From a virus, in IMG/VR virus record IMGVR_UViG_3300021197_000864, positions 31,572-95,571 of that record: 64,000 nucleotides of DNA, one strand, 5' to 3'. This document shows, one piece after another, positions 15,094 through 57,800 of this stretch. How positions within the stretch are numbered: the first letter of the stretch is position 1; the number at the start of each line of letters is the position of its first letter. The position numbers and the translations under genes are program-made. The notes beneath the pieces are model-generated. The model saw only the letters and a list, made by a program, of their open reading frames with translations, ran no database searches and was not told the origin of the DNA.

Positions 15094-15303
15094 ATGAAAT
15101 TAACAATAGCAAATGAAACCGGACATACGGTAATGGAAAATATGACAGTAGATGATATGCTTGACCAAATACAAGACCATCCAACACATTGGATATATCT
15201 TGATGGGATTCAAGTACCTAAAGAAACAATTACAGCAACAGACTGGGACTCAGTAGCAGATGTACTGCTAATGCCCGGTATGCAGGGTGGAGGCAACCAA
15301 TAA
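15094..15303 (+). CDS. Ubiquitin-like beta-grasp protein (ThiS/MoaD/SAMP-type) precursor
   Basis: 69 aa; C-terminus VLLMPGMQGG-GNQ matches the hydrophobic-strand-P-x-x-x-GG end of SAMP/MoaD, plus a short extension. Confidence 0.7.
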   Translation: MKLTIANETGHTVMENMTVDDMLDQIQDHPTHWIYLDGIQVPKETITATDWDSVADVLLMPGMQGGGNQ

Positions 15304-15334
15304 ATACCATTTAGGTATTTATGTCTCTACAATT

Positions 15335-15380
15335 GAGGTGGCAGCATTCCCTCACAATTTGCTGCCCCTCATACCTTTTT
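15335..15380 (+). terminator. GC-rich hairpin after the Ubl gene
   Basis: GAGG(T)GGCAGCA...TGCTGCCCCTC followed by a T-run. Confidence 0.55.
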
Positions 15381-15394
15381 AGGAGAGGAATCCT

Positions 15395-15775
15395 ATGTTA
15401 TGCGATTATGCGAATATATTACCGACTGGAATATTACCAGTCTTTTTGAAATCACAAGGTTGGCTTTACCGTGATAGTAAAAAATATGAAGATTATACTT
15501 TAATGAAGCCCGACTTTTACCCTGTTGGATATGTTCTAGCAGTGAGTATGAAAGCAGTTATTATTTGTGATGGGGAAACCTTGATTGAATATAACAATAA
15601 ACAATATAAAGATGTAGATGATTTAATTTCAGAATATGGAATTGATGTAATTTCTACCTTCCCATCTTGGAACTTTTTGGTCGAGAGAGAATGGGTCGTA
15701 AAGAAGAATGGTGAATATGTTCATTCATTCTCTTCATTTGACCAAATAGTAGAAAGAAAAAAATTAAGGTGTTAA
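15395..15775 (+). CDS. Hypothetical protein
   Basis: 126 aa; GGAGAGG RBS. Confidence 0.65.
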   Translation: MLCDYANILPTGILPVFLKSQGWLYRDSKKYEDYTLMKPDFYPVGYVLAVSMKAVIICDGETLIEYNNKQYKDVDDLISEYGIDVISTFPSWNFLVEREWVVKKNGEYVHSFSSFDQIVERKKLRC

Positions 15776-17661
15776 AGATGAAAGAAATGGAACTACAAAA
15801 TAAAGTGCTATCAGAGTTTAATGTATTTACGAAGTATGCTAAATATAGAGCAGATGATAATAGAAGAGAAACGTGGGATGAGATTTGTGAAAGAAACAAA
15901 CAAATGCATCTTAAAAAATATATTAATAGAGGTAATCCTCAATTGATTGAAGAGATAGAAAATGTATATGAGAACTTTGTTAAACCTAGAAAGGTAGTTC
16001 CATCAATGAGGTCTTTTCAATTTGCAGGTAAACCCGTAGAACTATCACCTAATAGATTATACAATTGTGCATATATGCCAATAGATTCTTTAGAGTGTTT
16101 TTCTGAGTCTATGTTTTTGTTATTAGGTGGAACAGGTGTAGGGTATTCCGTACAACGTCATCATGTAGAACAACTACCAACTATCAGAAAACCCAATCCT
16201 GATAAGTTTAGAAGAATATTAATTAATGATTCTATTGAAGGTTGGGCTGATGCAATTAAAGTTCTTTTTGAATCATACTTTGGTATGAGAACATCTTCTC
16301 CTAATTTTGATTATGATGATATTAGACCTAAAGGTGCGCCACTAAAAACTAGTGGTGGAAAAGCACCCGGTCCAGCACCACTAAAAATAGCATTAGTTAA
16401 AATTGAAACAATGTTATTACAAAAAGAAGAAGGTACACAACTAACTCCTTTAGAGTGCCATGATATATTATGTCATATTGCTCATGCAGTTTTATCGGGT
16501 GGTATTAGACGAGCAGCATTAATATCTTTATTTAGTGCTGATGATAATGAAATGATTAATTGTAAAGCAGGTAAGTGGTATGAACAGAATCCACAAAGAG
16601 GTAGAGCAAATAACTCAGCATTCTTACTTAGACATAGAATAGAAAAAGGATTCTTTGAAGATTTATGGGAAAGAATTAGATTATCTAACTCAGGAGAACC
16701 GGGAATATATTTCTCCCATGATAAAGATTGGGGAACAAATCCTTGCTGCGAGATTGCTTTACGCCCATATCAGTTCTGTAACTTGTCAGAGTGTAATGTT
16801 TCTGATGTTTTATCTCAAGAAGATTTAGAAGAGAGAGTAAAAGCAGCCGCTTTCTTAGGAACTTTACAAGCAGGTTATACAGATTTCCACTATTTACGGG
16901 AAGTTTGGCAGAAAACTACTGAAAAAGATGCACTTTTAGGTGTGTCTATGACGGGAATAGGTAGTAATAAAGTAACTTTATTAGATATTGAACAAGCAGC
17001 AATCGTTGCAAAGAATGAAAATGAAAGAGTTGCTGAATTACTTGGGATAAATAAAGCAGCAAGAGTTACTTGTGTTAAACCATCAGGAACGGCTAGTTGT
17101 GTATTAGGTACTTCATCAGGTATTCATCCTTGGTATGCTCCATTCTATAATAGAAGAGTTAGAGTAAACAAAGTAGAACCTGTATATCAATATCTATTAG
17201 ATAGAGTACCTGATTTAATAGAAGATGATTACTTTAGTGCTACTGAAGCAGTATTCTCTATACCACAAAAAGCACCTAAAGGTGATGTAATAACTAGACA
17301 TGAGTCTGCAATTAATATGTTAGAACGTGTAAAGCGTTTTTCTGTTGGTTGGGTTCAACGTGGTCATAGGGATGGATTGAATACTCATAATGTATCTGCA
17401 ACTGTTCAAATTCGTGAAGATGAATGGGAAGATGTAGGTGCATGGATGTGGTTAAATAGACATTATTACAATGGTCTAGCAGTTTTACCATATGATAATG
17501 GTTCTTATAAACAAGCACCATTTGAAGAAATAACAGAAGAAGAATATAATAGTATGAGGTCTAAACTATATGATTTAGACTTTACACAAGTAATAGAATT
17601 AGATGACAATACCGATTTACAAGGAGAAATTGCTTGTGCAGGTGGAGTTTGTGAAATATGA
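15769..17661 (+). CDS. nrdJ: Class II (adenosylcobalamin-dependent) ribonucleotide reductase
   Basis: RETWDE, PSMR, YNCAY, GGTGVGYSV, GGIRRAA, TNPCCEI, KPSGT and C-terminal CAGGVCEI motifs; no small-subunit gene nearby. Confidence 0.93.
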   Translation: MLKMKEMELQNKVLSEFNVFTKYAKYRADDNRRETWDEICERNKQMHLKKYINRGNPQLIEEIENVYENFVKPRKVVPSMRSFQFAGKPVELSPNRLYNCAYMPIDSLECFSESMFLLLGGTGVGYSVQRHHVEQLPTIRKPNPDKFRRILINDSIEGWADAIKVLFESYFGMRTSSPNFDYDDIRPKGAPLKTSGGKAPGPAPLKIALVKIETMLLQKEEGTQLTPLECHDILCHIAHAVLSGGIRRAALISLFSADDNEMINCKAGKWYEQNPQRGRANNSAFLLRHRIEKGFFEDLWERIRLSNSGEPGIYFSHDKDWGTNPCCEIALRPYQFCNLSECNVSDVLSQEDLEERVKAAAFLGTLQAGYTDFHYLREVWQKTTEKDALLGVSMTGIGSNKVTLLDIEQAAIVAKNENERVAELLGINKAARVTCVKPSGTASCVLGTSSGIHPWYAPFYNRRVRVNKVEPVYQYLLDRVPDLIEDDYFSATEAVFSIPQKAPKGDVITRHESAINMLERVKRFSVGWVQRGHRDGLNTHNVSATVQIREDEWEDVGAWMWLNRHYYNGLAVLPYDNGSYKQAPFEEITEEEYNSMRSKLYDLDFTQVIELDDNTDLQGEIACAGGVCEI

Positions 17662-17945
17662 GATATAGGTCAAAACTGAATAGAGAAGAGTTTCTAGAAA
17701 TAGAACAAGAAATATATGATATGTTTTCTAATGATACAGTTAAAAACAATGTGCATAAGAGATTCAATCAGTTGAGGGATGGTAATATGACTCCCCTAAC
17801 ATTTATGCATAACTTATTGCGTACAATGAATACTATCAACAATATAACGAGGAGTGAAGCCCTCACAAAAATAGTGGAAACACACGAATATAAAAAATAT
17901 AAAGAGAGGAATATAAATGAAGATAATTTACGAGAACATACCTAA
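17658..17945 (+). CDS. Hypothetical protein
   Basis: 95 aa; ATGA overlap. Confidence 0.6.
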   Translation: MRYRSKLNREEFLEIEQEIYDMFSNDTVKNNVHKRFNQLRDGNMTPLTFMHNLLRTMNTINNITRSEALTKIVETHEYKKYKERNINEDNLREHT

Positions 17946-18174
17946 GAGCAAAATAATAAAAGCATATAGAAATAAACTGAAAGAATCAGGACTTTATACC
18001 AAACGGTATAATACTTCTGATTGTGTACCTGCTTTGGTACGGCCTAATGTTATGGGTTCTACAATGAGTTGGGTTGACTTTCGTAGATTACCTAGAGAAA
18101 TGGTTGCAATGCATTGTTTTATGCAAGGTCTAACTATTGATGGGGTTCAAACTATTATGGAGGAAGAAGAGTGA
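17917..18174 (+). CDS. Hypothetical protein
   Basis: 85 aa. Confidence 0.6.
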   Translation: MKIIYENIPKSKIIKAYRNKLKESGLYTKRYNTSDCVPALVRPNVMGSTMSWVDFRRLPREMVAMHCFMQGLTIDGVQTIMEEEE

Positions 18175-19391
18175 AAGTTAAGTTACATGTTCCGAGAGCA
18201 GATGATAGTCAGATATTTGATACAACAAGTTTTCTATATCGCACTACTGATTTGAAACGTAATTATCGTAGTAAACTAAATAGATTTGGTGAATATAAAG
18301 TAGTAAGTACTCTTGACTTAGATAAAAAAAATAGTTTAGACCCTATTTATGCAGGAATTAGTAAAGCATTAAATAAATTTCTATTTATGTCAACCAATGA
18401 TAATGTTACAACTATTATTACCTTTAAGTATAGGGATGGGGACTCAACTATTGTTTTTCAAAAGAATAAACCTCACTTTTTCTTAAATGGTGAGAAAGAT
18501 AGTAAAGGTATTATTATAGATAATTTAAGTAAGATTTTTTATCGTTCTTGTTTTGAGAAGAGTAGTACTAAGATGGATAGATATATTCGTAGGTTGTTAT
18601 TATTTCCACCGAATGTAATGTATTCAGTAGAAAATAGAACACCTTATTCATTTTATAGTAATGATGGGTCAATGGTGAAACAGAATGTTAGGATTAAAAC
18701 AAAGATAATTTCTGATAAAGAATGTGCATTAGAAATTTCTGATGGTGTTTGGGCTAGTATTACAATAAAAGATTTAAATTCATTTATTAATTACCATAGG
18801 CATGGTCATAAACGCTCTGAAAAATGGGGAGTTTCACCGGAAAACCTATGGAAAAAATTGTTAAATTATGAGCCTAGTAAGTCTCAAGTAAAATTGATGT
18901 ATGCTTTTCTAGAGCAAAATAGAACTCAATCATTAGTTGAAAAGAGAGCCGAAGAACTATTAGCAGAATTAGAAACTAAGTTTCCTAGTAAAATTAAAGT
19001 CTTTAAGTTGGGTAAACGTAAGCAAACTATTATGCTAGTTAGAGGTCAGAGATGTGATTGGGTATTAAAAGAAAACCCTTCTTCTTCTGATACTCAAAAA
19101 GTTAATACTCATAGATTTGTAGAAAATAATGATGGTGAAGCAAGTTCCAAAGGGGCTTTAATACATCCTCATAATTCTACGGTACTAGGTACTTTATCAG
19201 CAGTATGTATAGATAATATTCATAAAAATTCTAGTCTAGGCGACCAATTTGCTGCAAGAGCAATGTTTCTTATGAATGATGTTATGTCAAGTTCACAAAT
19301 CAATACAATGAGACTACCCGAAAAGGAACATAGGATACCTAATGTATATTGGGATAACTTAGATGAAATTGTTGCGAGGGGAAAACTGTGA
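18171..19391 (+). CDS. Hypothetical protein; C-terminal HP..G..VCID motif (speculative E2-like)
   Basis: 406-aa ORF; HPHNSTVLGTLSAVCIDNI loosely resembles the UBC motif HPN...G.ICLD. The gene is solid, the function speculative. Confidence 0.6.
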   Translation: MKVKLHVPRADDSQIFDTTSFLYRTTDLKRNYRSKLNRFGEYKVVSTLDLDKKNSLDPIYAGISKALNKFLFMSTNDNVTTIITFKYRDGDSTIVFQKNKPHFFLNGEKDSKGIIIDNLSKIFYRSCFEKSSTKMDRYIRRLLLFPPNVMYSVENRTPYSFYSNDGSMVKQNVRIKTKIISDKECALEISDGVWASITIKDLNSFINYHRHGHKRSEKWGVSPENLWKKLLNYEPSKSQVKLMYAFLEQNRTQSLVEKRAEELLAELETKFPSKIKVFKLGKRKQTIMLVRGQRCDWVLKENPSSSDTQKVNTHRFVENNDGEASSKGALIHPHNSTVLGTLSAVCIDNIHKNSSLGDQFAARAMFLMNDVMSSSQINTMRLPEKEHRIPNVYWDNLDEIVARGKL

Positions 19392-20290
19392 AATGTATAG
19401 AATGTGAATCAGAAAGAAATATGTTTGATGAAAGATTGGGTGAGCAAGTTTGTTTAGATTGTGGACTTGTCTTGGTGAAAAATATATTTGAAGATACTAT
19501 CAAAAATATAGATTATAATATATCAAATGTAGATTACAAAGGCGCACCTAACAAGTCTTGGGATTTAGGTTCAACTATTCATAAAGGAGATGTGAATAAG
19601 TTTGGTGTTATGGGTAGGAAATTATTCTTTACTCAAAGACATAACAACCCATTGAATGAATCTTATTTGAGGATGTTAAAATTATCTAATATGAATCTAT
19701 CATATTATAATGTAGCACCTGTACTAAAGAGTAGAGTAAGTAAATATTATAATTTGTTAAATAAAAAACAGGCATTAAGAGCAGTGCCTATTGATAATAG
19801 AGCAGCAAGTTTAACTTATTATATATTAAAAGAAGCAGGTATTGCAGTAACAGTACAGAAGCATTCTAATGTAACTAAGATATCTAGAGGTGAAATATCA
19901 AAATATGCTAGAGTGATAGCAACTCATTTAGGTAAGCCTTGGGTCTTTTCTCAAATGAACATTGAAGGTTTGATTCAAGAAGTTGGGTCAAAATTATATT
20001 TACCTAACCCTCAATATATTGGGGATGTAAGTAAATTATCAGAACACGTTTATCAAAAACTAGATGCTCACGGTGTGCAATTTACAATAGCAACTTTGTC
20101 TGCATGTTTTTATCTAGTGTCAGTATTTAGACGGGAAAATTATACACAACAAGAGGTTGCTAAATTAGTCGGTACTACCGAAGTATCACTAAGAAAGAAC
20201 ATGAAAAAGATTTTACAATTATATAATGTAGATAAAAATAAATTAAATTATATGGTATTAAATGATTTTATTAATGGAATTAGAAAGTGA
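19388..20290 (+). CDS. tfb: Transcription initiation factor IIB (TFB) homologue
   Basis: N-terminal Zn ribbon CIEC...GEQVCLDCGLV, then two cyclin-like repeats ending TQQEVAKLVGTTEVSLRK. Confidence 0.88.
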   Translation: MKCIECESERNMFDERLGEQVCLDCGLVLVKNIFEDTIKNIDYNISNVDYKGAPNKSWDLGSTIHKGDVNKFGVMGRKLFFTQRHNNPLNESYLRMLKLSNMNLSYYNVAPVLKSRVSKYYNLLNKKQALRAVPIDNRAASLTYYILKEAGIAVTVQKHSNVTKISRGEISKYARVIATHLGKPWVFSQMNIEGLIQEVGSKLYLPNPQYIGDVSKLSEHVYQKLDAHGVQFTIATLSACFYLVSVFRRENYTQQEVAKLVGTTEVSLRKNMKKILQLYNVDKNKLNYMVLNDFINGIRK

Positions 20291-20531
20291 TTTTATGATT
20301 AAAGACAGTGAGTTCTGGAAAAAATGGAGAAACTCTCATAATTATGATATTGGTTATAAGGGATATACTGTGTTAAAAGGTAGGTATGTTAAAGTAACGG
20401 TAGTTGATATTGAATATTATGAGTCATCTCCTAAAAAAATATGGAGATATGTAGTAGCAACAAATTGGGGTCATAAATTAAAGAGAGTTTCACTCTTTAC
20501 AAAAAAGGAAAAAATAGAATGGAGTAGTTAA
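20262..20531 (+). CDS. Hypothetical protein
   Basis: 89-aa ORF between tfb and the E1 gene. Confidence 0.55.
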   Translation: MILLMELESDFMIKDSEFWKKWRNSHNYDIGYKGYTVLKGRYVKVTVVDIEYYESSPKKIWRYVVATNWGHKLKRVSLFTKKEKIEWSS

Positions 20532-20532
20532 A

Positions 20533-21108
20533 ATGAAAAGAAAGATAATGATAATAGGTGCAGGTGGTATAGGTAGTATGTTAATACATAATTTAGAAAG
20601 ATTAGGTATTTATGACATAACTGTTTTTGATGATGATAAGGTAGAGAAAAAGAATTTAACTTATCAACATTATAATGAAAGCCACTTAGGAGAAAATAAA
20701 GCAGAAGCAATTAGTAGTCAGTTTAATGGTATTAAAGCCGAACCGTATTTAGTTTTAGTACCAAAACAGTTGAAAGGTTATGACCTAGTTATTTGTTGTG
20801 CAGATAATTTAGATGTAAGACGCTTGCTTTATAGGCAAGGTACAGGTGATGATGCTAACGTGAAGTGGTTAGATTTACGCGCACAAGGCAGAAATGCTAC
20901 GCTAATATCATATATGCTTAATCCTAATTTAGTGGATACTGTATTAACAGGGGAAGAAGGTTCTTTTTCCTGTCAAGCACAATCTTGGGATGGCTCTGCT
21001 AAAGGTGTTAATATGATGAATAATGTAATCGCTTCTATTGCTGCTCAATGGATTCAGAAATGGTTCAATAAGCAGGAAGTAACTGCAAGTATGGTGTTTA
21101 ATATATGA
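20533..21108 (+). CDS. ThiF/MoeB/E1-family adenylyltransferase
   Basis: IIGAGGIGS, DDDKVEKKNL..Q, NKAEA and CCADNLDVR motifs; candidate catalytic Cys in GSFSCQ. Confidence 0.9.
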   Translation: MKRKIMIIGAGGIGSMLIHNLERLGIYDITVFDDDKVEKKNLTYQHYNESHLGENKAEAISSQFNGIKAEPYLVLVPKQLKGYDLVICCADNLDVRRLLYRQGTGDDANVKWLDLRAQGRNATLISYMLNPNLVDTVLTGEEGSFSCQAQSWDGSAKGVNMMNNVIASIAAQWIQKWFNKQEVTASMVFNI

Positions 21109-21347
21109 CCGATAAAGTTGATGACGATTTAGAATTATCAGATGAGGAGATAGGTGAAATAATAAGTATTATTTCTAAGGATGGGATTTATCTTAGGTCT
21201 GAAATAGTTAGAGTTTGTTGTCATGTTTGTGGTGAAGAGTTTATAGGAACAAAAAGACACGCAGGAGGCTTTCTAAGTGGGCATCAAGTATATCATGAGT
21301 CTATTATTAAAGAGAGTATTAGAGCATCCCAACAAGGAGGGGTCTGA
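21105..21347 (+). CDS. C2H2-type zinc-finger protein
   Basis: CHVCGEEF...HQVYH. Confidence 0.65.
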   Translation: MTDKVDDDLELSDEEIGEIISIISKDGIYLRSEIVRVCCHVCGEEFIGTKRHAGGFLSGHQVYHESIIKESIRASQQGGV

Positions 21348-21645
21348 TATGGGATTAGAGGATTGGAAGCCCTCTAGCGATAGTAAAGCATCAGAAATTG
21401 ATGTAGTTAATGTTGTGTCAAATTGGACTAATGAATATCCAACAGAGTTTGGCATGACTAGTTTCCTAAGAGACAAGATATTTGCTGTATCTAATACAGG
21501 TAAGAGTGTGTTAGTGCATATGATGAATGGTCAAACATTTACAATAACTATTAAAAATAGCCCTATTCCTTTTTTTAAGGATGATAGGCTTACTAATGAA
21601 ATTGTAATCAAAGAATTAAAAGGTGAGAAAAATGAAAAAAAATAA
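21277..21645 (+). CDS. Hypothetical protein (likely start MGLED)
   Basis: GGAGGGG RBS before the internal ATG. Confidence 0.6.
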   Translation: MGIKYIMSLLLKRVLEHPNKEGSDMGLEDWKPSSDSKASEIDVVNVVSNWTNEYPTEFGMTSFLRDKIFAVSNTGKSVLVHMMNGQTFTITIKNSPIPFFKDDRLTNEIVIKELKGEKNEKK

Positions 21646-22003
21646 AGTTAAGAAAGGAAAATGGGATGAGCATGAAGTAAAGTTACTTTGTGTTTGTTTG
21701 GATGAAGGTTTGGATGTTGAAGAAACAGTATTACGATTTGATGGTACTAGGACTTCTGCACAAATTAAAAGTAAGATTTCATCCAAAGCAATAAGAGAGC
21801 GTCATGTTGATTTAGATATAGAAGAGATGCATGAGGACTTGGTTAAAGAAGAAGAAATGGAAGAACATCTAGAAAAGGTAAAAGATGTTCTCGATGAGAA
21901 AATAGCAGAAGTTAAGAAAACTAACAATAAAATGGTGTTTAGATTAGTTCTAATTACAGCAGTAATTGTTGGAGTATTAATACAAACAGGGGTAATAGAA
22001 TGA
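21623..22003 (+). CDS. Myb/SANT-like HTH protein with C-terminal transmembrane helix
   Basis: KKGKWDEHEVKLL...RTSAQIKSK; hydrophobic tail LVLITAVIVGVLI. Confidence 0.6.
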   Translation: MRKMKKNKVKKGKWDEHEVKLLCVCLDEGLDVEETVLRFDGTRTSAQIKSKISSKAIRERHVDLDIEEMHEDLVKEEEMEEHLEKVKDVLDEKIAEVKKTNNKMVFRLVLITAVIVGVLIQTGVIE

Positions 22004-22575
22004 AGATAAAGAATAGTGAAGAAGAATATGATAAGAATGATAGATTTAGTGACGACACTAAATTATATGTAGATATAATGGAAAAGGTTGTTAAAGATAA
22101 CGAATGGAAAAAACCTATTAGAGAATTATGGGAAGTATGTTCTGATAGTATGGAATGGGTGTATCCTGATTTTGGTACAGAAGCATTCCTGAGTCAAATA
22201 TACAAACAATCTATTGAGCATTTTGATATTCCTAGAGAAGTTCAAGTGTTAGTAGATGCTAATAATAATCTATTCATGAGTGTTGGGACACCGGGTTTTG
22301 TATCTTTTGCAAATCAAGATGATGAGTTATATGGTAGTGAAGAACCAATGAAATTACCTATTAAATGTTGGATTCACACTCATCCTAATATGTCAGCGTA
22401 TTTCAGTGGAACTGATTGGGCAACTATTGATACTTGGAAAGGTAATTTAGATAGTGCAATTGTTTTAGGTCAAGGTGAAATGTGGGCTTATGATTGTAAA
22501 ACTGAAATAGGTAAGCACGTATCATTTATTAAGACCAATAGTGGTAGGTATTCTGTAACGGAAGGTGAGGAGTGA
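22000..22575 (+). CDS. JAB/MPN+ (JAMM) metalloprotease
   Basis: E (REVQV) followed by HTHPNMSAYFSGTD = E-x(n)-HxH-x7-S-x2-D. Confidence 0.85.
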   Translation: MKIKNSEEEYDKNDRFSDDTKLYVDIMEKVVKDNEWKKPIRELWEVCSDSMEWVYPDFGTEAFLSQIYKQSIEHFDIPREVQVLVDANNNLFMSVGTPGFVSFANQDDELYGSEEPMKLPIKCWIHTHPNMSAYFSGTDWATIDTWKGNLDSAIVLGQGEMWAYDCKTEIGKHVSFIKTNSGRYSVTEGEE

Positions 22576-43308: not shown

Positions 43309-46300
43309 TCAACCTACCATAATCCAATTATTAGCAGTAACACAAATAAACGATGCTAACTCATGGTCTGCTATTGCTGCATTTGTAAAGCCTGAAATCA
43401 TAGAACAATTAGTGCTATTAAGCGCAATAGAAGCCTGACTACCTTTGTTATTAATTACAGTATATTGAGTTCCTACTGTTCCGCTTGCAGGTAAAGTTAA
43501 TGTCCCACCTGTCCAATAAACGTATGAACCTGATTGTGCTATTGTTAATGTTGTATTACTTGATGCCGCTACAACATTTGCTCTACTTGTCATTTGACCG
43601 GGAATTGCTACTTCACCACTACTACCTATGGTTAATCTCGCTGTTCCACCTGTTGAGAATCCAAAATTGTTGTCACCGATTCGATACATTCCTGTATCAG
43701 TATCGCCATTGAAAGTGTAGTAAGGAGCGGCTTCCGTTCCACTCAAAGCCATAAACTTACCCGAACCACCACCGATATAGAAATTGGTAGCAGTAAAACC
43801 AACATCACCATGCACTTGTAATTTATTACCGTATGATGCACCACCGATAGCAACATTACCGCTTCCGTTTATTTTGAAAGGTGTTGAATCAACATTTGAT
43901 GAATCTTCGACAATAAAAGCATCTCCTGAACCTGTTTGTGTAATTCTTAGTAGTTGTTGGTCTGATGATGCACTAATAACAAACTTTTCAGATGATGAAG
44001 TGTTATCATAAGTAAATGACGCTATTCCATCTTCTGTACCACCATTGTTATACAATAATTCAGTATCACTACCGCCAACTGTGCCGCCTGATGGTGTCTC
44101 CCAAGCAACTCCTGAACCTGTTGAAGTTAGAACTTGACCGTCAGAACCATATGAGTTTCCAATCTTCAATTTTGAATCAACTAAATCAACAGCACCATCT
44201 GAGTATATTTTTAGTCTTGGACTTCCACCTGTTCCTAAGAATATAGCATTCGTATCTTCTCTACCCATGCCGCAATCGTTGTCGTCAATAAATGTGAAAG
44301 ACGGAGATGTATAACTGCCCCCACCAAGAGATATATTTGCTGCTACTGATGCAGTTGAATCAACAGTAAGATTATCAGTTTTTACTGTTCCATCAAAGTA
44401 TGCGTTTTTAAACTGACTACTACCTGTTCCTAAATCTATATCATCATCAGTAACAGGTTCTATTACACCATCTTTAATGAATAATTGAGCAGTTCCATCT
44501 ATTGTAAATCCTATTTGATTTTCTGCATATCGGTATATTCCTGTATTATCATCACCTGCTAATGATAATCCGGGTGCAGTATTAGAACCTGCGATAATCT
44601 CAAATCTTTTATTTGCTTCAACCTTAGAGGATTGCATATACATAGCATTAGAACCACCAACTGAGAATGCTAAAGTATCACTTGTTAATCTATACATTCC
44701 TGTATTAGTATCAGAAGCAAATGAAAATGTAGGTGCGCTTGCTGAACCATTAACACCACCTGCGTTTGTATCGCCACTACTAACAGTAGTGAAACTTAAA
44801 TTTCCACTTCCATCAGTTTGAATGACTTGATTTGCAGAACCATCTGATTGAGGTAAATAATAGAGGCCGTTAATTTGTACCTTACTTGTTGAATCTCGAC
44901 CAAGAACTACTTTACTATTAGCATCATCACCATTGTTAATGTAAATACTTCCCGATGTGGAATCGTTTATCTGAATATATGGCTCAGTCCAACCTGCATT
45001 TGTATTGGTAGTTAGAACCAAATCTTGTGAACCGTTTGAAGATATCTTGGCCGTAGCAGACCCCGTTCCAAATAGAGTTGTAACACTACCCAATGTTTTG
45101 TTAGTGAGGGTTTGAGTACCTGTTAATGTAGCAACTGTTGAATCAATGTTCAATGTTGCACTACCACTTGTAGCCCCACCACTAAGCCCTGTACCTGCAA
45201 CTACTGCTGTTATATCTCCTGAACCTGAACCAAAGTTTTGTGCTGCTATATAATCATAAACTGCATCACCATCAACTAAACCTGTATTACCATTTCCTAC
45301 TGTTCCTGAATCAGCCCATGCTCCATCACCACGAAGATAAGTTGCTGTTTTACCTGCGGGGATTGAAGGTACTAAACCTGCTTTACCTATTGAAGAAGCA
45401 CCTGCACCTTCAAATCTTGGAATGAATATATCTTTTGAACCGCCTACTGTAACCTTAACTCCTTCAGGGGCTTTAATAGTAGTATTATCACTATGGCCTA
45501 CCGCAGTTGTACCTGCATGGCCTCTTACTGTTCCGGTTGTTTGCCCGTTACCGTCAATACCTGTATAATAGACTAATTCATTACCTATTTCTAATAATCC
45601 TCTAGTTGGAAAACCTGTTGCGTCATCTAATTTAATATGGTCTGTTGTGCCTAAATCTGCATCATCTAAACTAGTTGCCGCTATTTGAGAATAAGCCGTT
45701 GTAAAGGCACTAACTTTATCACCTGTTACTGCACTATCTGCTAATTCTGCTGTATCAATAGCATTAGCACCTACCTTATCATTAGTAACTGCACCTGTTC
45801 CTAATCTTGCTTCTGTAATAGCACCTGTACCTATTCTTGATGCAGGTAAAGTTCCTGCTGTTAATTTTTCAGCATTGATTCCTGTTGCTAATTTATCATT
45901 AGCAATAGAACCTGCTAACTTATCTTGTGAAATTGAACCTGCTAATTGTGCATTAGTTATTGTACCTACCAAATTGCTAGTAGTATATCCGGTAGCATTA
46001 GTTAATGTTCCACTTGCAGGAGTTCCTAATACGGGTGCAACTAAAACCATACCACTAGCCATTGTTCCTTGAGAAACTTGTGCAGCAGGTAATGCTGTTG
46101 CGTTTGTTAATACTAAAGCAGAAGGTGTTCCTAATGCGGGTGTAGTAAGAGTAGGACTTGTTAATGTTTTATTGGTTAGAGTTTGTTCTTCTGTTAACTG
46201 AACAATGTTGCTGTTTGTTATAGAAGCAATCTTAGTAGAAGTATCAGCATTACCTGTTAAATCTCCAACAACACTACCACCAAAACTTGTTGCAGTAAAT

Positions 46301-49300
46301 CTTCCTGTACTTGGATTGTAATTAAGTCCTGTATCAGTTTCAACTCCTTGAGTGCCAGTGGCACCATCAACGAATGTTAAATATACAGTTTCATTAGCAG
46401 TATTGTTAGCACTAACAGTTACATTTGTTGCTTCAGTAGAAGTAGATGCATTACCAACAAAACTAGTAGCCTGTAAAGGTACGTTAACTGCTAACCTTGT
46501 ATTACTATGGTCATAAGTTAAAGTTGGTATAGTTCCTGATGACCATCCTGAACCAAATGTTAAACCTGCTCCATTTGTTGCGGCTGATGAACTAGCATCC
46601 TTAGCAACTGTAATGTTTAAATCTGTTACTTCTAATGTAGCAACATCTAATGTTGTAGCAGTACCACTAACTAATAAATCTCCTGTTACAGTTAAGTCTC
46701 CTGAAATAGTAGTATCTACTGTACTAGCACTACCAATAGTGACGTTAGAATCTATGTCTACTAACCTATCTATAAGATTAGCAACATTTACATCTACGTC
46801 TGAATTACTAGTAAATGTTAATGAACTTTGCATATAAGTGGCTAAATTAGCCATTGTTGCTTTTCTATTAGTACCATCTGCACCATCATCAACAATCATT
46901 AAATCTGTATTAACTAAGTTATTGTTAAGAGCAGTTGCACCATCTATATTCAATGCAGTTAATGCAACCTTATCAGCAGTAGAAATTGTAGAAAGTTTAG
47001 AATCAGCAATAGAACCTGCTAACATAGCATTACTAACTTGAACTTCTGATATTACACCTGCTGATGTTGCACCTAATACTCTATTATTTGTTGTAGTATG
47101 TTGTAATTTTGCATAAGTTACTGCATCGTCAGCAATCATAGCAGTTGCAACTTGAACTTCTGATACTGCTCCATCTGCACTTGAACTTCCTAATACTCTA
47201 TTTGCAGTAGCAATATTTTGCATTTTAGCATATGTTACTGCATCAGCAGCAATTGTTGTAGCACCATCACCACTTGAAGTTACATCACCTGAATGGTTTG
47301 GATGACTATAAACTGTATCTGTATCAGGCAAAGTAATAGCCATTACATATGGGTCGCTTGTTGTTCCACTACCTGATAAATTAGTCCCTGCTGTTCCTGT
47401 TGCCGCAGTAAACTTGATGAACTCATTTTCAGTAATGATTAGGTCATCATTATCATCATCTCTAATTTTGAATCCATCACCCATATCTACCGTATTAGTA
47501 AATGAAGTAATATAACCATAATCCTCAATCTTCTCTCTAATAGCACCTGCTGTCATTAAAGAAGTATCATTGTCTGCAAATCCAGTACCCGTATGAATAG
47601 TAGTAATACCGACCGTTCCTGTTGAAGCATCGTCAAAAGTCCATGTTCCTGTTGTTGTAAAACCTGCGGCAGTTATTGTTCCTGTTGTAGTATCATTAGC
47701 ATCATTCTTCAAGAATGCATCATCAACACTAAACTCTGTTCCACTTAATGTTAAGTTAGTTCCTGCTGTGTATTCGGTGTTAGTATTAGTATCAGTAGAA
47801 GAAATAGTTACAACACCATCTACTTCTGCTAAAGTAATATTACTACCTTTCTTTAATCTTAATGCCTCAGTCGAAGTTAGAGTATTATTAACAGAACCAT
47901 CACCATTTGTATCTAACTCTATTGTTCTAAATGTATTAGTGTTGGCTACATCGTTAGTAATAGTTAATGTTCCATCAGCACTTGTATCAGTTGAAATTCC
48001 TGTACCACCTGCAATAGTTAATGTTTCACCTTCAACAATAGTGGTTGCATTTGAATTAGAATCTCCTACTACAATGAATCCATCACCCATATTTATGGTA
48101 TCAGTATTAGTATCAGTAGAGGATATTGTTAATTCAGTAGCACTTGTTCTTGTTACTGTAACATTAGTTCCACCTGTTATAGTGATGTCATCATTACTTC
48201 CACTAGAAGGGTCTAATCTTAAAACGGGATTATTGTTATTACCCCCTGTTTGTTCTAAGGTTAAATCATAAGTTGTGTTAGTATCGGTATTTGTTACTGT
48301 ATTAGCAATTGTAATTACTCCATCAGAAGTAGATGTAGTAGTTATTCCTGTACCTGCTGCAATAGTAATAGTATCATTATGACCAACAGTAGTAGGTGCA
48401 GTGTTAGTTGTACCTCTTAATGTGAATGTAGTTAACTGATTAGTGTTAGTATCAGTATTTGCTAAGTTTGTTAATATTGAAGCACTATTAAAATAAGTTG
48501 TTAAATTATCAATAGTCATTTCTCTCAAAGCAGATTCAGATGTATCGTGTATTATTAGTGAATCACCTGAAGCAACATTGTTTCCTAAATCAGTAGCACC
48601 TGTTATATCACCTGTTGCAAAGTTAGAAGCACCTGCCGCACTAGCACCAATAGCCGTTCTAAAGTCTGCATCACTTAATGCTGAAACGGTATTATCCGCA
48701 TTCAATCTTGGAAATGTAATTGCACTAGGGTTAGTTAATGTGAATAAATTAGCACCAACAGTAGTAGCACCTAATCCTGTTCTAGCACCACTAACGGTAG
48801 TAGAACCTGTACCTCCACTTGATATTGCTAGAGTAGAAGATAAACCACCCGCAGTTCCCGTAGTATTTTCATTTTGTAATGCTAAAGTACCTTGTGTATT
48901 AGGTAATGTAATTGTAATATCATTATTAGACCCACTTGGATTACCACCTACTAATGTTGTCTCACTATTATCAGCAGTAGAACCTTCAAAGACTACACCA
49001 TTACTTGTTGATACAGTTTCTACATTATTTGTAGTTACTGTGCCTGTTACTGTTAAATCACCCGGAATTGAAACTGCTGTATTACCGTCACCAATAGTAA
49101 GAGCATTACTTGGCATTGCCGCATTAAGAGCAGAATGAACATTTGTCGTATCTGTTACATCAGCAGATGTTTCTATGCCATCTAGTTTATCGAACATTTC
49201 ATCAGACATAACACCCCAATTATCTGTATCTGCTAAAGGTAGTTCTGCATTAGTACCATCAGAAGATACAACGTGTAATTTAGTTCCATCTCTACTTACA

Positions 49301-52300
49301 GATAAATTAGTTGATACGTTTGTGACTTTATTAGTATTAGCCGCAACAGCAGAAGCATCAGTGTAACTAACCTTAGCATTGTTAGCGGTAATGTTATCAA
49401 ATATTTCATCAGATATTACACCCCAATTATTTGTGTCTGCTAACGGTAAAGATACATTATTACCATTAGTAGTAGTAATACTTAATGATGTACCATTTGC
49501 AACTGCCGCTAGATTACCTACTACATTAGTATCCTTTGCTGTATTAAGAGCAATAGCATCAAATATACCTGTTGACATTACACCACTTACAGATGTAGTC
49601 GCAACAGGTAAAGTGAATCCTGTTCCATCAGAATTAGTTATTGTTCTTGCACCTGTCGTTCCCGTAATCGCTAAATTAGAAACCACGTTAGTAGCCTTAA
49701 CATCATTCAATGCTACTCTATTTTCTAACTTACCTATACCAACTAATATAGAATCTGTTGCACCTACTGTTCCACCGGATGATACACTTAAATTAGTTAA
49801 TTCTTTTCCTGTTACTTCTGTTGTACTTAATTGAGTATCAGTAGCAGTAATAGTTATATCACTAGTATTAGATGTTAAAGTAATATTTGACCCTTGTTTT
49901 AATTTCTTAAATTCTAAGTCTGCACCATCTTTTTGTTTGAATACCCCTACTTCTGTACCACTACCTGAACCCACGTTAGAAGCAGTATTAGATTCACCAC
50001 TAGCCGCAGATAAGGCATAACGACCATCTAAATCAACCGTTAAATCGCCTAATGAACCCGTTCTACCCAGTGTAAAGACACCTGAACCAGTGTTAAACGC
50101 CACACTTTCTGCATAATTATTCGTGTTGGAAACGGTATTAGTGAAAGTAATTTTATCACTACTTCTTGCTATACTTAATCCTGTACCTGCTTCAAGTACT
50201 ACATCATCAGTACCACCTGCACTATCAGTTAACCGAATCTTTTCTTCATCAGTATTATCACCATCAACCGCAGATATTGAATAAGTTGTATTGTCATCAG
50301 AAGATTGGTCAGCAACTACTAGTTGTATTTTACCTGCACCTTCACCACCATCAACATAAGAAGTAACTATTCTTGTTTCTGAATTACTCTCAAACATATT
50401 ACCTACAATATCTTGTACTGCTTCTGTTGATAATTGGTCATTATCATAATTACCTGCATGAATATTTGTAGAACCTTGGTCAGCAGTCCAATCTATTATT
50501 TCATTATCTGAAATACCTAAATCAGAACGAACCTCTGCTGTCGTTCTTGCTTCTAATGTATTTGAATCTGTAAACCTAGCATATTCAGTTGCATTTACTG
50601 TTCCTGTTGTATCAACTGTACCTGCACTTGCAGTAGCATTTGCTTCTGCCGCAGGGAAACCAATTGATTCCCATTCTCCTGAAGTAACTTCATCTGCACC
50701 CGCAGAATGAGCCTGATACATTCTATTATTATCATCGGTATCAATCCAAATATCACCTGCTGAAACGGCAGTAGGTACACTTGTTTGTCTAAATGTTCTA
50801 CTTCTTGTAGCACCATCTTCAGGTAAAGTAGTAGTGAAGAGTTTACCACTACCAACTACATGAGAAGAAGCAATACTAGCATTCTTAACATCTGCATCAC
50901 TTAATGTTGTAGAACCATCTGCTGCTTTAAGGTTAGTACCTAATCTAGCACCAACGGTAGCGTTATTTGCAGGTGCGTTTGCTGTACCTGCTACATCCGA
51001 CCAATTAGTATTTGCATTTAATGCAGTAGTATCTGTTAACTTAGTACTACCATCTTCTAATAATATATTTCCACTAGAACCTAATGTTCCACCAACAGTA
51101 GCATTGTCAGCAGGTTTAGTATTATTAGCATCTTGAATCTCATCATATTCTGTTTTTCTATTATCAAATACAACATCAACAGGAGTACCTGCGGTATCTT
51201 GTATAGTTGTTGTAGAACTACCATCGAAAAATTCTAACTTACCTGTGGTAGCATTAACCCTAACTGCTAGATTATTTGATAATGCCCTACCTGCTACTGT
51301 TCTAGTAATAGGAACTTTACTTGCTAAATCGGTTGATAAATCTTCTATTTTAGATTGTGCTAATGTAGGTATTCTGCTAGTACCAAATTCACCACTACCA
51401 ATTTTATCAGCAGGTAATGTTGGAATTAACCCATGAGTTACAGCACCCATTAATTGTGTTAATGTTATTTTTCTATTTGCAGACGCAGTAGCATCATAAA
51501 ATGCTAAAGTGTCATTAGTGAGATGAATGCCTGATTCACCAATTAAAGCATCTATATCTAAATGCTCATCAGTAGATGAAAAAGAAACTGTATCTGTACC
51601 ACTAGTTGTTGTAATTGAAACATTAGTCCCACCTACTAAAGTAAGAGTATCTGTTTTAGCATCAGCCGCAACAGTTGTTTGACCACTTACTGCTACATTA
51701 CTGAAAGCATTTTGATTTACTTCTCCACCTGATGCAGTACCTAAAGCAACCCAATTACCCCCATGATAATATTCTATATTTCCACCATCATATCTTATTG
51801 ACCCTGCGTCAGTAAGATTACTAGTAGTTAATGTAATTCCATTACTTGTCTTTAATTGATTCGGTATAGTAACTATACCTGTTTGGGTTATAGATAAATA
51901 TGAGTTATCTGCTCTAAATACTGAATCAGCATCATTAGATAAGAAACCATCTTGGTATCTTTTATCTGCAACAAACCCTATTTGTAATAATCCTGTACCT
52001 GTTCCCGCAGTAGAAAATTGTTTTCCAATACCCCAAGTATAATCATCATCTTGATTACTTGTATTTGTATCTTCATCGTGTGATAAAACAAGACCTGCTC
52101 TATGTTGATTGTTTTGAGTTTCAATAGCATATACTGCACCTGTTCCATAATATTCTATACCTGCACCTGTACTCTCAGCAGCAGCATCAACAACTAATCT
52201 TGCTTCTGTATATTGAGTGTCTTTTAATTCCATTTGTGGGTATCTAAGGTTACTATAATAAGCACCTGCATTGAATAATTCATTTGCCGCAAAAGTAGTT

Positions 52301-54815: not shown

Positions 54816-57800
54816 TTACACATCCTTTTCACTCTCATATGTGGTATTAGTAGTGGTACTTGTTTCCCCAAAGCCTAAAGTATTTCCGAATCCAAGAATT
54901 AAATCTGCGCCCATAGTAGTACTATCAGAAGTTGATTTAATTTCATATTTAATAAGGTTATTATTAATTTGTATTTCATCAAATAATGCTTTACCAACAA
55001 CATTTTCAGTTGCATTTTTAGTAAACAATGTAAAGTTAGCATTCTGTTGTTCTAAGTTAATTTCAGATAGTCTTTCTGCAATTGATTTATCAAATGTACC
55101 TACGGTAATTTCTGCTGTTCCTGATAAAACATTTTCTATATCAAAAACCATATAATCATCTCTAGGTATTTGTTGATTAGGGAAATCTAAAGATATAATA
55201 TCTCCCGCCTCTAAAAGTTCTATTCCTTTCTTTTGTAGAACTAATTTTATCTTTCTTACATCTTTATTGTGGTGATTTAATAACTTTATTGCTTTTATTT
55301 TTGCTTCGTCAGGAGTTTTAATAGAAGCATCTACATGACGTAATACTTGTGGAGTATTATTGGTTGGTAATTCCATTTCTGCTTTTACACCATCTCCGAC
55401 AACTATTACTTTGGTCTTTTTATCGAATAGTGTTTTATTAGATTGTACACGTATTAAATTATTATCTTTGCTATATGATACATGATATTTTCTTAAAGCA
55501 TATGGACTAGATAAATTTCTAGTAATTATAGCATTATTTTTAATTTTAAAATCTAAATCTTTCAAGTTAGCCAAATAGTTGATTGCACTAAAAGAATCTA
55601 CTGATTCAAATTTAACATTAGTAACAAATGTATTTTTATTTCTCTTAGTAAGTTCATCGAAAGGTGAAGGAGTAAACACTATTCCTCCTCCAAAGGTCAC
55701 TGAAAATGCACCACTAGTAGTATTTTTATCCGTAATTTTACCAATTAGATAGCCATCTTGATTATATATCACATCATTGATGGCTACATTTACCGGACTA
55801 CTACTTAAAGTGACTTCATTTCCACTAGAATAATTACTTTTTACAATTAAATCGGTATATTCTTTCAAACTTTCTTCAATATTTAAATCTAAACCCGATT
55901 CTTTAGCAATTTCTTCAAGAACATTATCAACTTTACTGCCTAATCTAACAGTAGTTCCTAAAAATGCATTCTTAGGGGTGATGTTTAACTTCTTAGGAAG
56001 AGTCAAATTGATTACTTTACCAAAAGAAACACAACCATTTGCTGAAATCTTACCATCATATTCAAACTTTAATGCGCTATTTGATTTTGTTACAGATAAA
56101 GATTTTCTCTGCTCATTTATACCATCACTAATAAAACAATCAATCTCTTCGCCATCTGTAAACATACTCATGTTAGCGAATAATCTTCTTTCTAAATATG
56201 TATTAGCAGTATCTATTTCTAATAACATATGCATAGAATATACACCTTCCGAATCAGTAGACTTAACTCCTTCTACACCGCCTGTTTTGAAGTCAGCAAA
56301 TACTTTATCATGTTGTAAGCCTGAATCATCCATTACATTAATTTCAAAGAAATCAGGTGTTTCATCGAATGTGGTTTCTGATATTCTCATTAATCTATAT
56401 GTACCCGCAGCACTCAAATCTTTATCGAAAGTAATTGTATGTTGCCATTTGTTACTAACTACTTTTTTTGTATGGCTAATTATTTTACCAATATATGATG
56501 GAGTACCCTTTGTAGTTATATTTGGCCCAACTATATATTGCCCTGTTAAATCTACCATATAGTGTAGCCAATGATGTGTAGAAGTACTATCCATAGTTCT
56601 AGTAATCACACTAGGGGTACTACTATAATCACCTGAAAGAATATTAAATTGTGGTTTTATTAACATTTGGGCAGCAAACATTCTACCCTCTTCATCACCA
56701 CTAACGGTTTCATTATGTACAATATCCGCGTCATTATCCCCTGATATTTTATTCACATTTAATTTGGTTAATCCATTGACTAAAGGATAAGATTCAGTTT
56801 TCATACCGATAAATGCGGCATCTAAATGTCTAAGTGTGCTTGTTGTGTGAAGACCTTCCCTAATTAATAAATTTTTAGAATGTTGATTTTGTGTGGTTAA
56901 AGATACATCAACATTACTAGATGAAGTATCATTATAACTATTATCTATGGTAAGTAAAGAACTAGAATCAAAATCATATAGATTGCTTGCATCCTTACTA
57001 GTTATATTTTTAATATTTCTAAATACAGCAACACAATTATCATAAATAGTTTTAGATGGAAAATCAGCATAATAATGTGGAGTTGTAATCCCATTAGCAG
57101 TTTTAAATAAAGGAGAAGATAATCCCGATAAAACTGCTGAACGGTGATATAAACTACCACTAGAACCTCCATTTACATCTGAATCAGCCGCATTCATTTT
57201 CCCATAATGTACGCCCGAATTAGTTTTTGATTTTGCATTATTAGAAGCACCTGTTGGTAAACCTGTTTCTGAAATAATTGGTAAAAATACATTATGAACA
57301 TCATAACCAAAATTAGAACCATGTTTTAAAGCATTATAAGAAAAGTATAATTCATCCTTATGAGTCAATGCTAAATTAGGTATAGCAAAATAGGCTAATG
57401 TAAAATCAACACTACCTGATGTATTATAAGTTCCATTATCCCCAAGACTATATAAATAGTCATCAGAAGAATCTAGTAAATCAAATGCAGGTCTACTATT
57501 TGTTTGTAATGTAAAAGTTCCATCTCCATTGTCTGTTGCATTAGCAAATCTTCTTAGTTTAATTATAGGAACTCTAGGTATCTCATCTCTATTTTTTAAT
57601 GCATCAGAGTCTATTGGGTTAAAGTGCCAATCAAAAGTTGCTTCGGTCAATCTGATTATACCCCATCTTTGTAATTCTTTAGTATTAGTTGCATCAGAAT
57701 CATCTATTATTGTTATATCATAATCTTTGTCTTGCATTTCATCAGATGTAGTTTTTCCAACATAATTAGTATGTTCTCTTTGGCTTCCTTTGCTTCCTTT

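Follow-up and report, generated by a model that had tools for sequence, protein, structure and literature searches.

A putative ubiquitin-like conjugation pathway spread through the replication module of an archaeal virus

Do a small protein with a diglycine near its end, an E1-like enzyme and a JAMM protease, encoded by non-adjacent genes within 7.5 kb of a viral genome, belong to one pathway, and would such a pathway tag proteins or carry sulfur? The question is raised by a stretch of 64,000 nucleotides (hereafter the window) that comprises bases 31572-95571 of the IMG/VR record IMGVR_UViG_3300021197_000864, a genome of 95,571 bp that is complete according to CheckV. A preliminary description of the window had named three open reading frames (ORFs), for a ubiquitin-like protein (Ubl), a ThiF-type E1 and a JAMM (JAB) protease, and all three were found on the + strand exactly where it had placed them. 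The block around them on the same strand encodes a class II ribonucleotide reductase (RNR), a TFIIB-like protein, an ATP-dependent DNA ligase, a replication factor C-like ATPase and a family B DNA polymerase, and thereby matches the replication module that has been described for magroviruses, i.e. viruses of Marine Group II archaea (PMC5434244). The reading favoured here, with a probability of about 0.62, is that the virus encodes a self-contained pathway of four genes, spread through this replication module, which would tag proteins with the Ubl. The fourth gene, for an E2-like partner of 406 aa, had not been listed in the preliminary description, and neither had the homologues of the gene set in host genomes.

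In the proposed mechanism, the 69-aa beta-grasp Ubl would be made as a precursor ending in GG-GNQ, and the JAMM protease would cut behind Gly66 to leave a free diglycine. The minimal ThiF-type E1, probably acting as a homodimer, would adenylate the free C-terminus of the Ubl at Gly66, and a thioester would probably then form on the invariant Cys147 of the E1. From there the Ubl would be handed to the invariant Cys346 in the UBC-like domain of the 406-aa partner, which would attach it to lysines of viral or host proteins, and the JAMM enzyme may take the tag off again. Roles of such tagging in the remodelling of host proteins, in their routing to the proteasome or in counter-defence are matters of speculation.

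The viral gene set

The linkage of the genes was assessed in two sets of loci. In 34 IMG/VR loci anchored on the E1, the Ubl, E1 and JAB genes stand in a constant order on every contig long enough to include them. To guard against the bias of choosing loci by their E1, a second set was anchored on the DNA ligase; a query with a single ligase protein returned only near-identical contigs, and an alignment was used as the query instead, after which 45 loci with at least 9.5 kb of upstream sequence were counted. The E1, JAB and E2-like genes were present together in all 45, and the Ubl gene in 42; the spacing is wider in the other three, so that their Ubl genes probably lie past the fetched span. 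The proposal of a single pathway made up of the three non-adjacent genes, for which co-occurrence across magrovirus genomes had been suggested as a check, is thus strongly supported by every spanning locus of both sets, as well as by the joining of the genes in hosts described below. A tblastn search of 50,697 GenBank phage records left the Ubl and the E1 unmatched and gave only a weak crAss-like match for the JAB protein.

The Ubl precursor (15094-15303, + strand, 69 aa) ends in MQGG-GNQ according to the ORF translation, with G65-G66 encoded at 15286-15291 and the presumably removable tail G-N-Q at 15292-15300. Structure prediction gave the beta-grasp fold that had been expected of it: the alignment-based AlphaFold2 (AF2) model reached a predicted local distance difference test (pLDDT) score of 88.7, with the element order beta-beta-alpha-beta-beta-alpha-beta, and the best Foldseek matches to this model were all ubiquitin (probability 0.99, E 7e-3). 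In an exhaustive VIA-align search, nearly all of the top 50 rows were beta-grasp proteins, the best being MoaD (Z 5.0), and Ddi1 UBL, ThiS, Fubi, ISG15, Urm1 and CysO were also matched. Over 65 residues, Z-scores of this modest size are to be expected, and they do not tell a protein of the ubiquitin type from one of the ThiS/MoaD type. As modelled, the Ubl is a beta-grasp protein, although it belongs to no relevant family in Pfam, NCBIfam, PHROG or PADLOC, and its profile found nothing meaningful among the sequences of the PDB.

The diglycine is invariant in the Ubl family. It was present in 28/28 homologues from the E1-anchored loci and in all 39 distinct sequences from the ligase-anchored loci, and it was kept throughout the best 120 (120/120) of the hits drawn from 713 database clusters. 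The tail behind it varies freely, from 0 to 3 residues among the 28 homologues of the E1-anchored loci and up to 4 residues overall, with one sequence stopping exactly at GG. The codons of the two glycines differ among the homologues (GGC, GGA, GGT or GGG) and no start codon follows close downstream, which indicates that selection acts on the GG as part of the protein and that it does not merely result from a Shine-Dalgarno site. The invariant GG and the variable tails fit the earlier suggestion that the tail makes this Ubl a precursor, and there is a precedent in the Bil type II system, where the JAB cuts one residue after the Gly and the E1 and E2 conjugate the Ubl to lysines (PMC10557695).

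Two further motifs are invariant in the viral Ubl family, namely G10-H11-T12 (in NETGHT) and H32-W33 (in DHPTHW). They are unusual for ThiS, MoaD and ubiquitin, and they may represent a recognition surface or a metal site; the host copies retain just the G-H pair and the Trp. A functional tie between the Ubl and the adjacent class II RNR was considered and rejected, since synteny extends over the entire module, no RNR match was detectable at two loci (L020 and L030) that retain the Ubl, and the host operons contain no RNR.

The JAMM/MPN+ metalloprotease (22000-22575, + strand, 191 aa) carries E80 at 22237-22239 and H126-x-H128-x7-S136-x2-D139 at 22375-22416. The complete JAMM site read from this sequence earlier is borne out by its conservation, as all five residues are invariant in 18 homologues and the E...HxH-x7-S-x2-D motif recurs in 56/56 further JAB sequences. 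The family profile matches AMSH and Rpn11-like chains (3.5e-5), and Pfam Prok-JAB stayed below its threshold (19.5 vs 25 bits, over residues 118-144 only). Its predicted function is the removal of the Ubl tail, and it may deconjugate the Ubl as well. A short Glu run (EE or EEE, e.g. GEEE; 22560-22575 in the window) forms the C-terminus of most JAB homologues (L001-L034) and of several proteins encoded nearby, and probably reflects GAGGAG-type ribosome-binding sites of the tightly packed downstream gene, lying inside the coding sequence. JAB homologues 41-45% identical to the viral one were also seen on three contigs (L038, L039 and L040) in bacterial metagenome-assembled genomes (Maricaulis, Altibacter), which are probably mis-binned magrovirus contigs.

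The E1 (20533-21108, + strand, 191 aa) consists of a ThiF-fold adenylation domain with the motifs GAGGIGS, D33/D35, K56, D91-N-x3-R96, WLDLR and S146-C147-Q148, and it is recognised by Pfam ThiF at E 1.3e-21 (77 bits vs a cut-off of 28.1). In an alignment of viral and host E1s, GxGGIGS, D33/D35, K56, D91 and R96 are invariant, and the nucleotide-binding and catalytic residues align to those of the active adenylation domain of Uba1. S146-C147-Q148 (Cys codon at 20971-20973) is likewise invariant in viral and host E1s, and S.SCQ and WLDLR occur in 49/49 viral E1s. The best profile matches were the active adenylation domain of Uba1 (4e-12), followed by UBA5, MccB (1.9e-11), Cap2 and MoeB, all over only the first ~105 positions, and the NCBIfam hits were ThiF and MoeB. 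The reach of the PADLOC models is likewise limited to the N-terminal ~70-110 residues (residues 3-69 for the best hit), and the best 25 of the 31 PADLOC matches were all to CBASS 'E1-E2' (Cap2-type) models.

The E2-like partner (18171-19391, + strand, 406 aa) combines an N-terminal region without a known fold with a UBC-like domain at residues ~252-392 (18924-19346). The fold of this domain was revealed only by the exhaustive VIA-align search, in which ~35 of the 50 rows obtained with residues 252-392 were UBC, UEV or RWD folds. The best matches were FANCL (Z 6.1) and Ubc13 (Z 5.2 over 112 aa, root-mean-square deviation 3.8), and E2S, Ubc9, UBE2O, the Tsg101 UEV, RWD domains and the E2 domain of Cap2 were found as well. 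The alignment of the family contains exactly one invariant Cys, located in the pattern GPxCIDN...GDQ...ND, and this Cys persists in viral and host members that share 24-51% identity with the copy in the window. This residue, Cys346 (19206-19208), sits in the AF2 model (pLDDT 83) between the strands 311-318/338-345 and the helix 356-368, and its modelled position, after the last (fourth) strand and before the next helix, would correspond to that of the catalytic Cys in E2s. The family is represented by 239 sequences among 1.84 billion proteins, and no Pfam family was detected in its viral, host or distant members. That the 406-aa protein belongs to the gene set as an E2-like partner is supported by the fold matches, the invariant Cys and the genomic context; since the context (45/45 viral loci; neighbouring genes in hosts) is independent of the modest fold scores, it supports the membership in its own right.

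Tagging and its alternatives

The resemblance of the Ubl to MoaD raises the alternative of a sulfur-carrier relay, in which a Ubl of the ThiS/MoaD/CysO/QbsE type would lose its tail to the JAB, or have its product released by it, and be adenylated by the E1; a host persulfide donor would then make the thiocarboxylate, and the sulfur would pass to a host acceptor (tRNA or cofactor). The Ubl does have the size of ThiS and MoaD and its best single structural match is the latter, the E1 is small, single-domain and of the MoeB/ThiF type, and one Joint Genome Institute (JGI) record labels a member of the Ubl family as a TusB-like sulfur-transfer protein. JAMM enzymes also accompany sulfur carriers in the CysO (Mec+) and QbsE (QbsD) pathways. 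However, a search of all six frames of the complete 95.6-kb genome for PP-loop ATPase, MoaE, ThiG and rhodanese gave no match at E<=0.1, while the control genomes responded. The preliminary description had seen no sulfur acceptor in the window, had judged tagging to be likelier than sulfur relay on that ground, and had named a sulfur-transfer partner elsewhere in the genome as a finding that would speak against it; the absence now extends to the whole genome. Biosynthetic genes also lie in neither the viral neighbourhood nor the host operons, and the E1 carries no rhodanese domain. Instead, the conserved partner is a UBC-fold protein with an invariant Cys, and the poly-Ubl precursors of the hosts (see below) are typical of modifiers and not of sulfur carriers. 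The UBC-fold partner and the poly-Ubl precursors point to conjugation, and a sulfur relay is regarded as quite unlikely.

A number of features nevertheless weigh against protein tagging by the pathway as proposed. With regard to the E1, two CxxC zinc motifs, which form the structural zinc site of MoeB, ThiF, UbaA and UBA5, were found in 0/49 viral sequences. The protein begins ~8 residues ahead of the glycine loop, without an N-terminal helix, and therefore has no N-terminal region for an arginine finger; in addition, where the NLxRQ motif has its Arg, the virus has Tyr (NLTYQ) and the hosts have His (NLxHQ). Both the arginine finger and this Arg are marks of canonical MoeB/ThiF-type E1s. The C-terminal half of the E1 aligns to no solved E1, so that the candidate catalytic Cys147 is put forward from its position. 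The earlier wording, an intact ThiF/E1, accordingly stands as far as the ThiF domain goes, which is clear at 77 bits, while the enzyme as a whole is stripped down. With regard to the E2-like partner, the Z-scores (4-6) are modest and under the level that is safe for a fold match alone. Nothing usable was obtained for the 406-aa protein from the profile search of PDB sequences, Foldseek, Pfam, PADLOC or the ESM Atlas, and Pfam UQ_con matched nothing in the genome, though it was likewise silent on the control genomes. The HPN motif of E2s is not conserved, and HPH occurs only in the protein of the window. Finally, archaeal SAMP and Thermus TtuB serve in both sulfur transfer and conjugation, and a role in sulfur transfer and one in tagging thus need not exclude each other.

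Some of these features would suit an activation of the Ubl that does not lead to protein tagging, in which the E1 would adenylate the Ubl for attachment to something other than protein, or for an MccB-like modification of its C-terminus, and the UBC-like protein would be a non-catalytic binder of the UEV/RWD type. In its favour, MccB ranks among the best profile matches of the E1, the folds that resemble the 406-aa protein include FANCL and the UEV and RWD domains, which are non-catalytic, and the HPN motif is missing. Against it stands a UBC-like domain in which exactly one Cys is kept in viruses and hosts at the identities given above. Moreover, Ubl modifiers have as their hallmark a JAMM protease together with a beta-grasp protein that bears GG and a tail, and the hosts have poly-Ubl precursors. 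This alternative is therefore given little probability, and tagging by the four-gene pathway remains the preferred reading.

Counterparts in Poseidoniales and neighbouring genes

When reference genomes were scanned with the profile of the JAB family, a Thalassarchaeaceae contig was found on which a homologue of the Ubl lies directly upstream of a 398-aa fusion protein, with the E1 at its N-terminus and the JAB at its C-terminus. The Ubl of this contig matched the viral Ubl family with an hhalign probability of 97%. The E1-JAB fusion protein was matched in 121 of the 201 sampled Poseidoniales genomes; the two parts are fused in the ~15 near-full-length matches listed, and elsewhere they are mostly separate, and adjacent where inspected. 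In 10/10 fusion loci, the gene just upstream encodes a Ubl, mostly ending in GG plus 1-2 residues. One host Ubl (L041, 1424-1654, + strand) ends in FIAG-YQ, with Ala-Gly in place of Gly-Gly, while the other inspected host copies retain the GG. In another genome, a 417-aa ORF (L144, G202:C29, 1542-2792, minus strand) comprises two tandem Ubl domains, each ending in VPGLVGG plus a linker, followed by an E1, and this ORF is flanked by an E2-like gene and a JAB gene. With GG at each junction, such a Ubl-Ubl-E1 polyprotein necessarily requires cleavage behind GG, and the ORF is a polyubiquitin-like precursor in an archaeon.

The E2-like partner also has host counterparts. The viral E2-like profile weakly matches host ORFs that directly adjoin the host E1/JAB genes. 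Some of these operons run E2-like, Ubl, E1, JAB, with a Ubl that ends in GG and a tail of 8 residues, and others run E1, JAB, E2-like. With a profile built from viral and host sequences, the E2-like domain was found in 116/201 host genomes. Both E1/JAB and the E2-like domain were present in 113 genomes, one of them alone in 8 and 3, and neither in 77, a co-occurrence with a Fisher value of 4e-42 (uncorrected for relatedness). A diverged counterpart of the viral gene set is thereby found in about 56% of the sampled host genomes. A protein of 257-314 aa encoded upstream of some host Ubl genes was also tried as a relative of the E2-like partner and rejected at an hhalign probability of 0.1%.

The presence of these counterparts bears on a further explanation, according to which the host set would be an antiviral system of the Bil or Bub kind, and the viral genes would serve counter-defence: the viral JAB would strip the host Ubl from viral proteins, and the viral Ubl, E1 and E2-like protein would compete with the host machinery or misdirect it instead of tagging their own targets. 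Diverged homologues of all four components in 113/201 host genomes are in keeping with this, as is the fact that the bacterial relatives Bil, Bub and CBASS Cap2/Cap3 serve antiphage immunity (PMC10557695, PMC11601596). In a tree of the E1s, one long branch with full support separates the viral from the host sequences, as would be expected of long-separated lineages; the tree is unrooted and has no outgroup, so no direction of transfer is claimed from it. On the other hand, a deconjugase alone would do for stripping, yet 45/45 loci retain all four genes, and the catalytic residues are intact (taking the three Ubl genes to lie past the fetched span), and the neighbours of the host operons are housekeeping genes and a TFB-like gene. 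Counter-defence is considered unlikely as an explanation of its own, but it is compatible with protein tagging by the viral pathway and the two are not mutually exclusive.

Two neighbouring genes may be related to the pathway. A TFIIB-like zinc-ribbon protein of 300 aa (19388-20290, + strand) is encoded between the E2-like gene and the E1, with a Pfam Zn_Ribbon_TF match (6e-6) that falls below the cut-off. A hidden Markov model of this viral family matched ORFs just downstream of the host Ubl/E1-JAB operons at five loci (L051, L053, L054, L055 and L056) with E-values of 7e-8 to 1e-5, mostly across the zinc ribbon, and one host ORF likewise shows a Zn_Ribbon_TF signal. The TFIIB-like protein may be a fifth component of the set, a regulator of it or one of its targets. 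A more far-reaching idea is that magroviruses and Poseidoniales operate parallel and mutually orthogonal Ubl tagging systems, each built on a minimal E1 without zinc and on an E2 of a new family, and tied to a TFIIB-like protein, through which the virus would reprogramme transcription factors or further proteins of the host, or destroy them, during infection. This idea is doubtful at present; if it were true, the viral genes would make up the first complete cascade for Ubl conjugation in a prokaryotic virus.

The second neighbour is an 80-aa protein (21105-21347, + strand) whose gene overlaps the stop codon of the E1. It contains the invariant pattern CPxCGEEFxGTKRHAGGFxxGHxxYH and ends in GG plus one residue, an ending shared by all homologues, which were found in most E1-anchored loci and in 38 ligase-anchored loci. 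The codons of this GG are mostly GGAGGA and lie 7-9 nt ahead of the next ATG, so that the GG is confounded with a Shine-Dalgarno site, and no homologue was found in the host loci. The GG was for these reasons rejected as evidence of a second Ubl, and the membership of the 80-aa protein in the gene set is uncertain. Elsewhere in the window, the minus strand carries two giant ORFs of 3,720 and 2,201 aa (43309-54471 and 54816-61421, respectively), around both of which the G+C content is 0.35-0.38, compared with ~0.32 in other parts of the window.

Relation to known systems

Eukaryotic viruses manipulate ubiquitin in many ways. Complete Ubl cascades of prokaryotes have been demonstrated experimentally only recently, and as antiphage defence. 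The genes described here form a core set of an abundant group of marine viruses whose hosts, the Marine Group II archaea, are uncultured. Should the pathway conjugate proteins, tagging would also be a weapon or tool on the side of the virus in archaea. It would further mean that a natural E1 of 191 aa can work without a zinc site or an arginine finger, and that there is a new E2 family, both of which would inform the evolution of such cascades. As the four proteins are small and could be reconstituted in vitro, they would also offer a biochemical handle on the interplay of virus and host in organisms that cannot be grown.

Parts of the set have been met before. MoeB/ThiF genes were among the most prevalent auxiliary genes of archaeal viruses in the RaFAH paper, which suggested a link to ubiquitination and described no Ubl, JAB or E2-like partner, precursor tail or host operon (PMC8276007). 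ThiF homologues were also reported in a preprint on Asgard viruses. In the literature searched on magroviruses and other viruses of Poseidoniales, neither ubiquitin nor ThiF nor JAB is mentioned, and 'magroviruses' and 'ubiquitin' were combined nowhere.

The closest archaeal parallel is the SAMP/UbaA/HvJAMM1 system of Haloferax (PMC4443979, PMC4895103), which shares with the viral set a small beta-grasp modifier with GG, a JAMM enzyme that matures and deconjugates it (in the virus a predicted maturation enzyme and possible deconjugase), and a single-domain MoeB-like E1. The viral E1 differs in failing the UbaA model (38.7 bits vs a cut-off of 450 bits) and in having no zinc motifs, and the viral set includes an E2-like partner. 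Sampylation, by comparison, needs no E2, and UbaA also acts in sulfur transfer.

Among the bacterial systems, Bub (6E; BubAB Ubl-E2, BubCD JAB-E1 and BubE) uses a JAB-E1 fusion that releases the Ubl from a fusion precursor (PMC11601596). A minimal E1 of the homodimer type that is fused to a JAB is also seen in the host homologues, but the order of the fusion is E1-JAB there and JAB-E1 in BubCD. Bub works through oxyesters and without a catalytic Cys, whereas the viral E1 and the viral E2-like domain both keep an invariant Cys.

The viral set is most readily compared with BilABCD (types I and II), in which BilA is the Ubl, BilB the E2, BilC the JAB and BilD the E1. Both are four-part sets of the same make-up with no E3, both have a short Ubl tail that is removed by the JAB after the Gly (as predicted in the viral case), and homologues of the viral set likewise occur as compact operons in host cells. 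The differences lie in the build of the proteins and in their setting. BilD is a multidomain E1 with inactive and active adenylation domains and a mobile Cys domain, while the viral E1 is a single domain of 191 aa, and the viral E2-like domain belongs to no named family and is found at the C-terminus of a 406-aa protein. Furthermore, the set described here belongs to an archaeal virus, in which its genes are dispersed across 7.5 kb of a replication module, and PADLOC gave no match for the viral Ubl, JAB or E2-like protein. The viral set would work like a Bil-type combination of Ubl, E2, JAB and E1, but lies outside that family.

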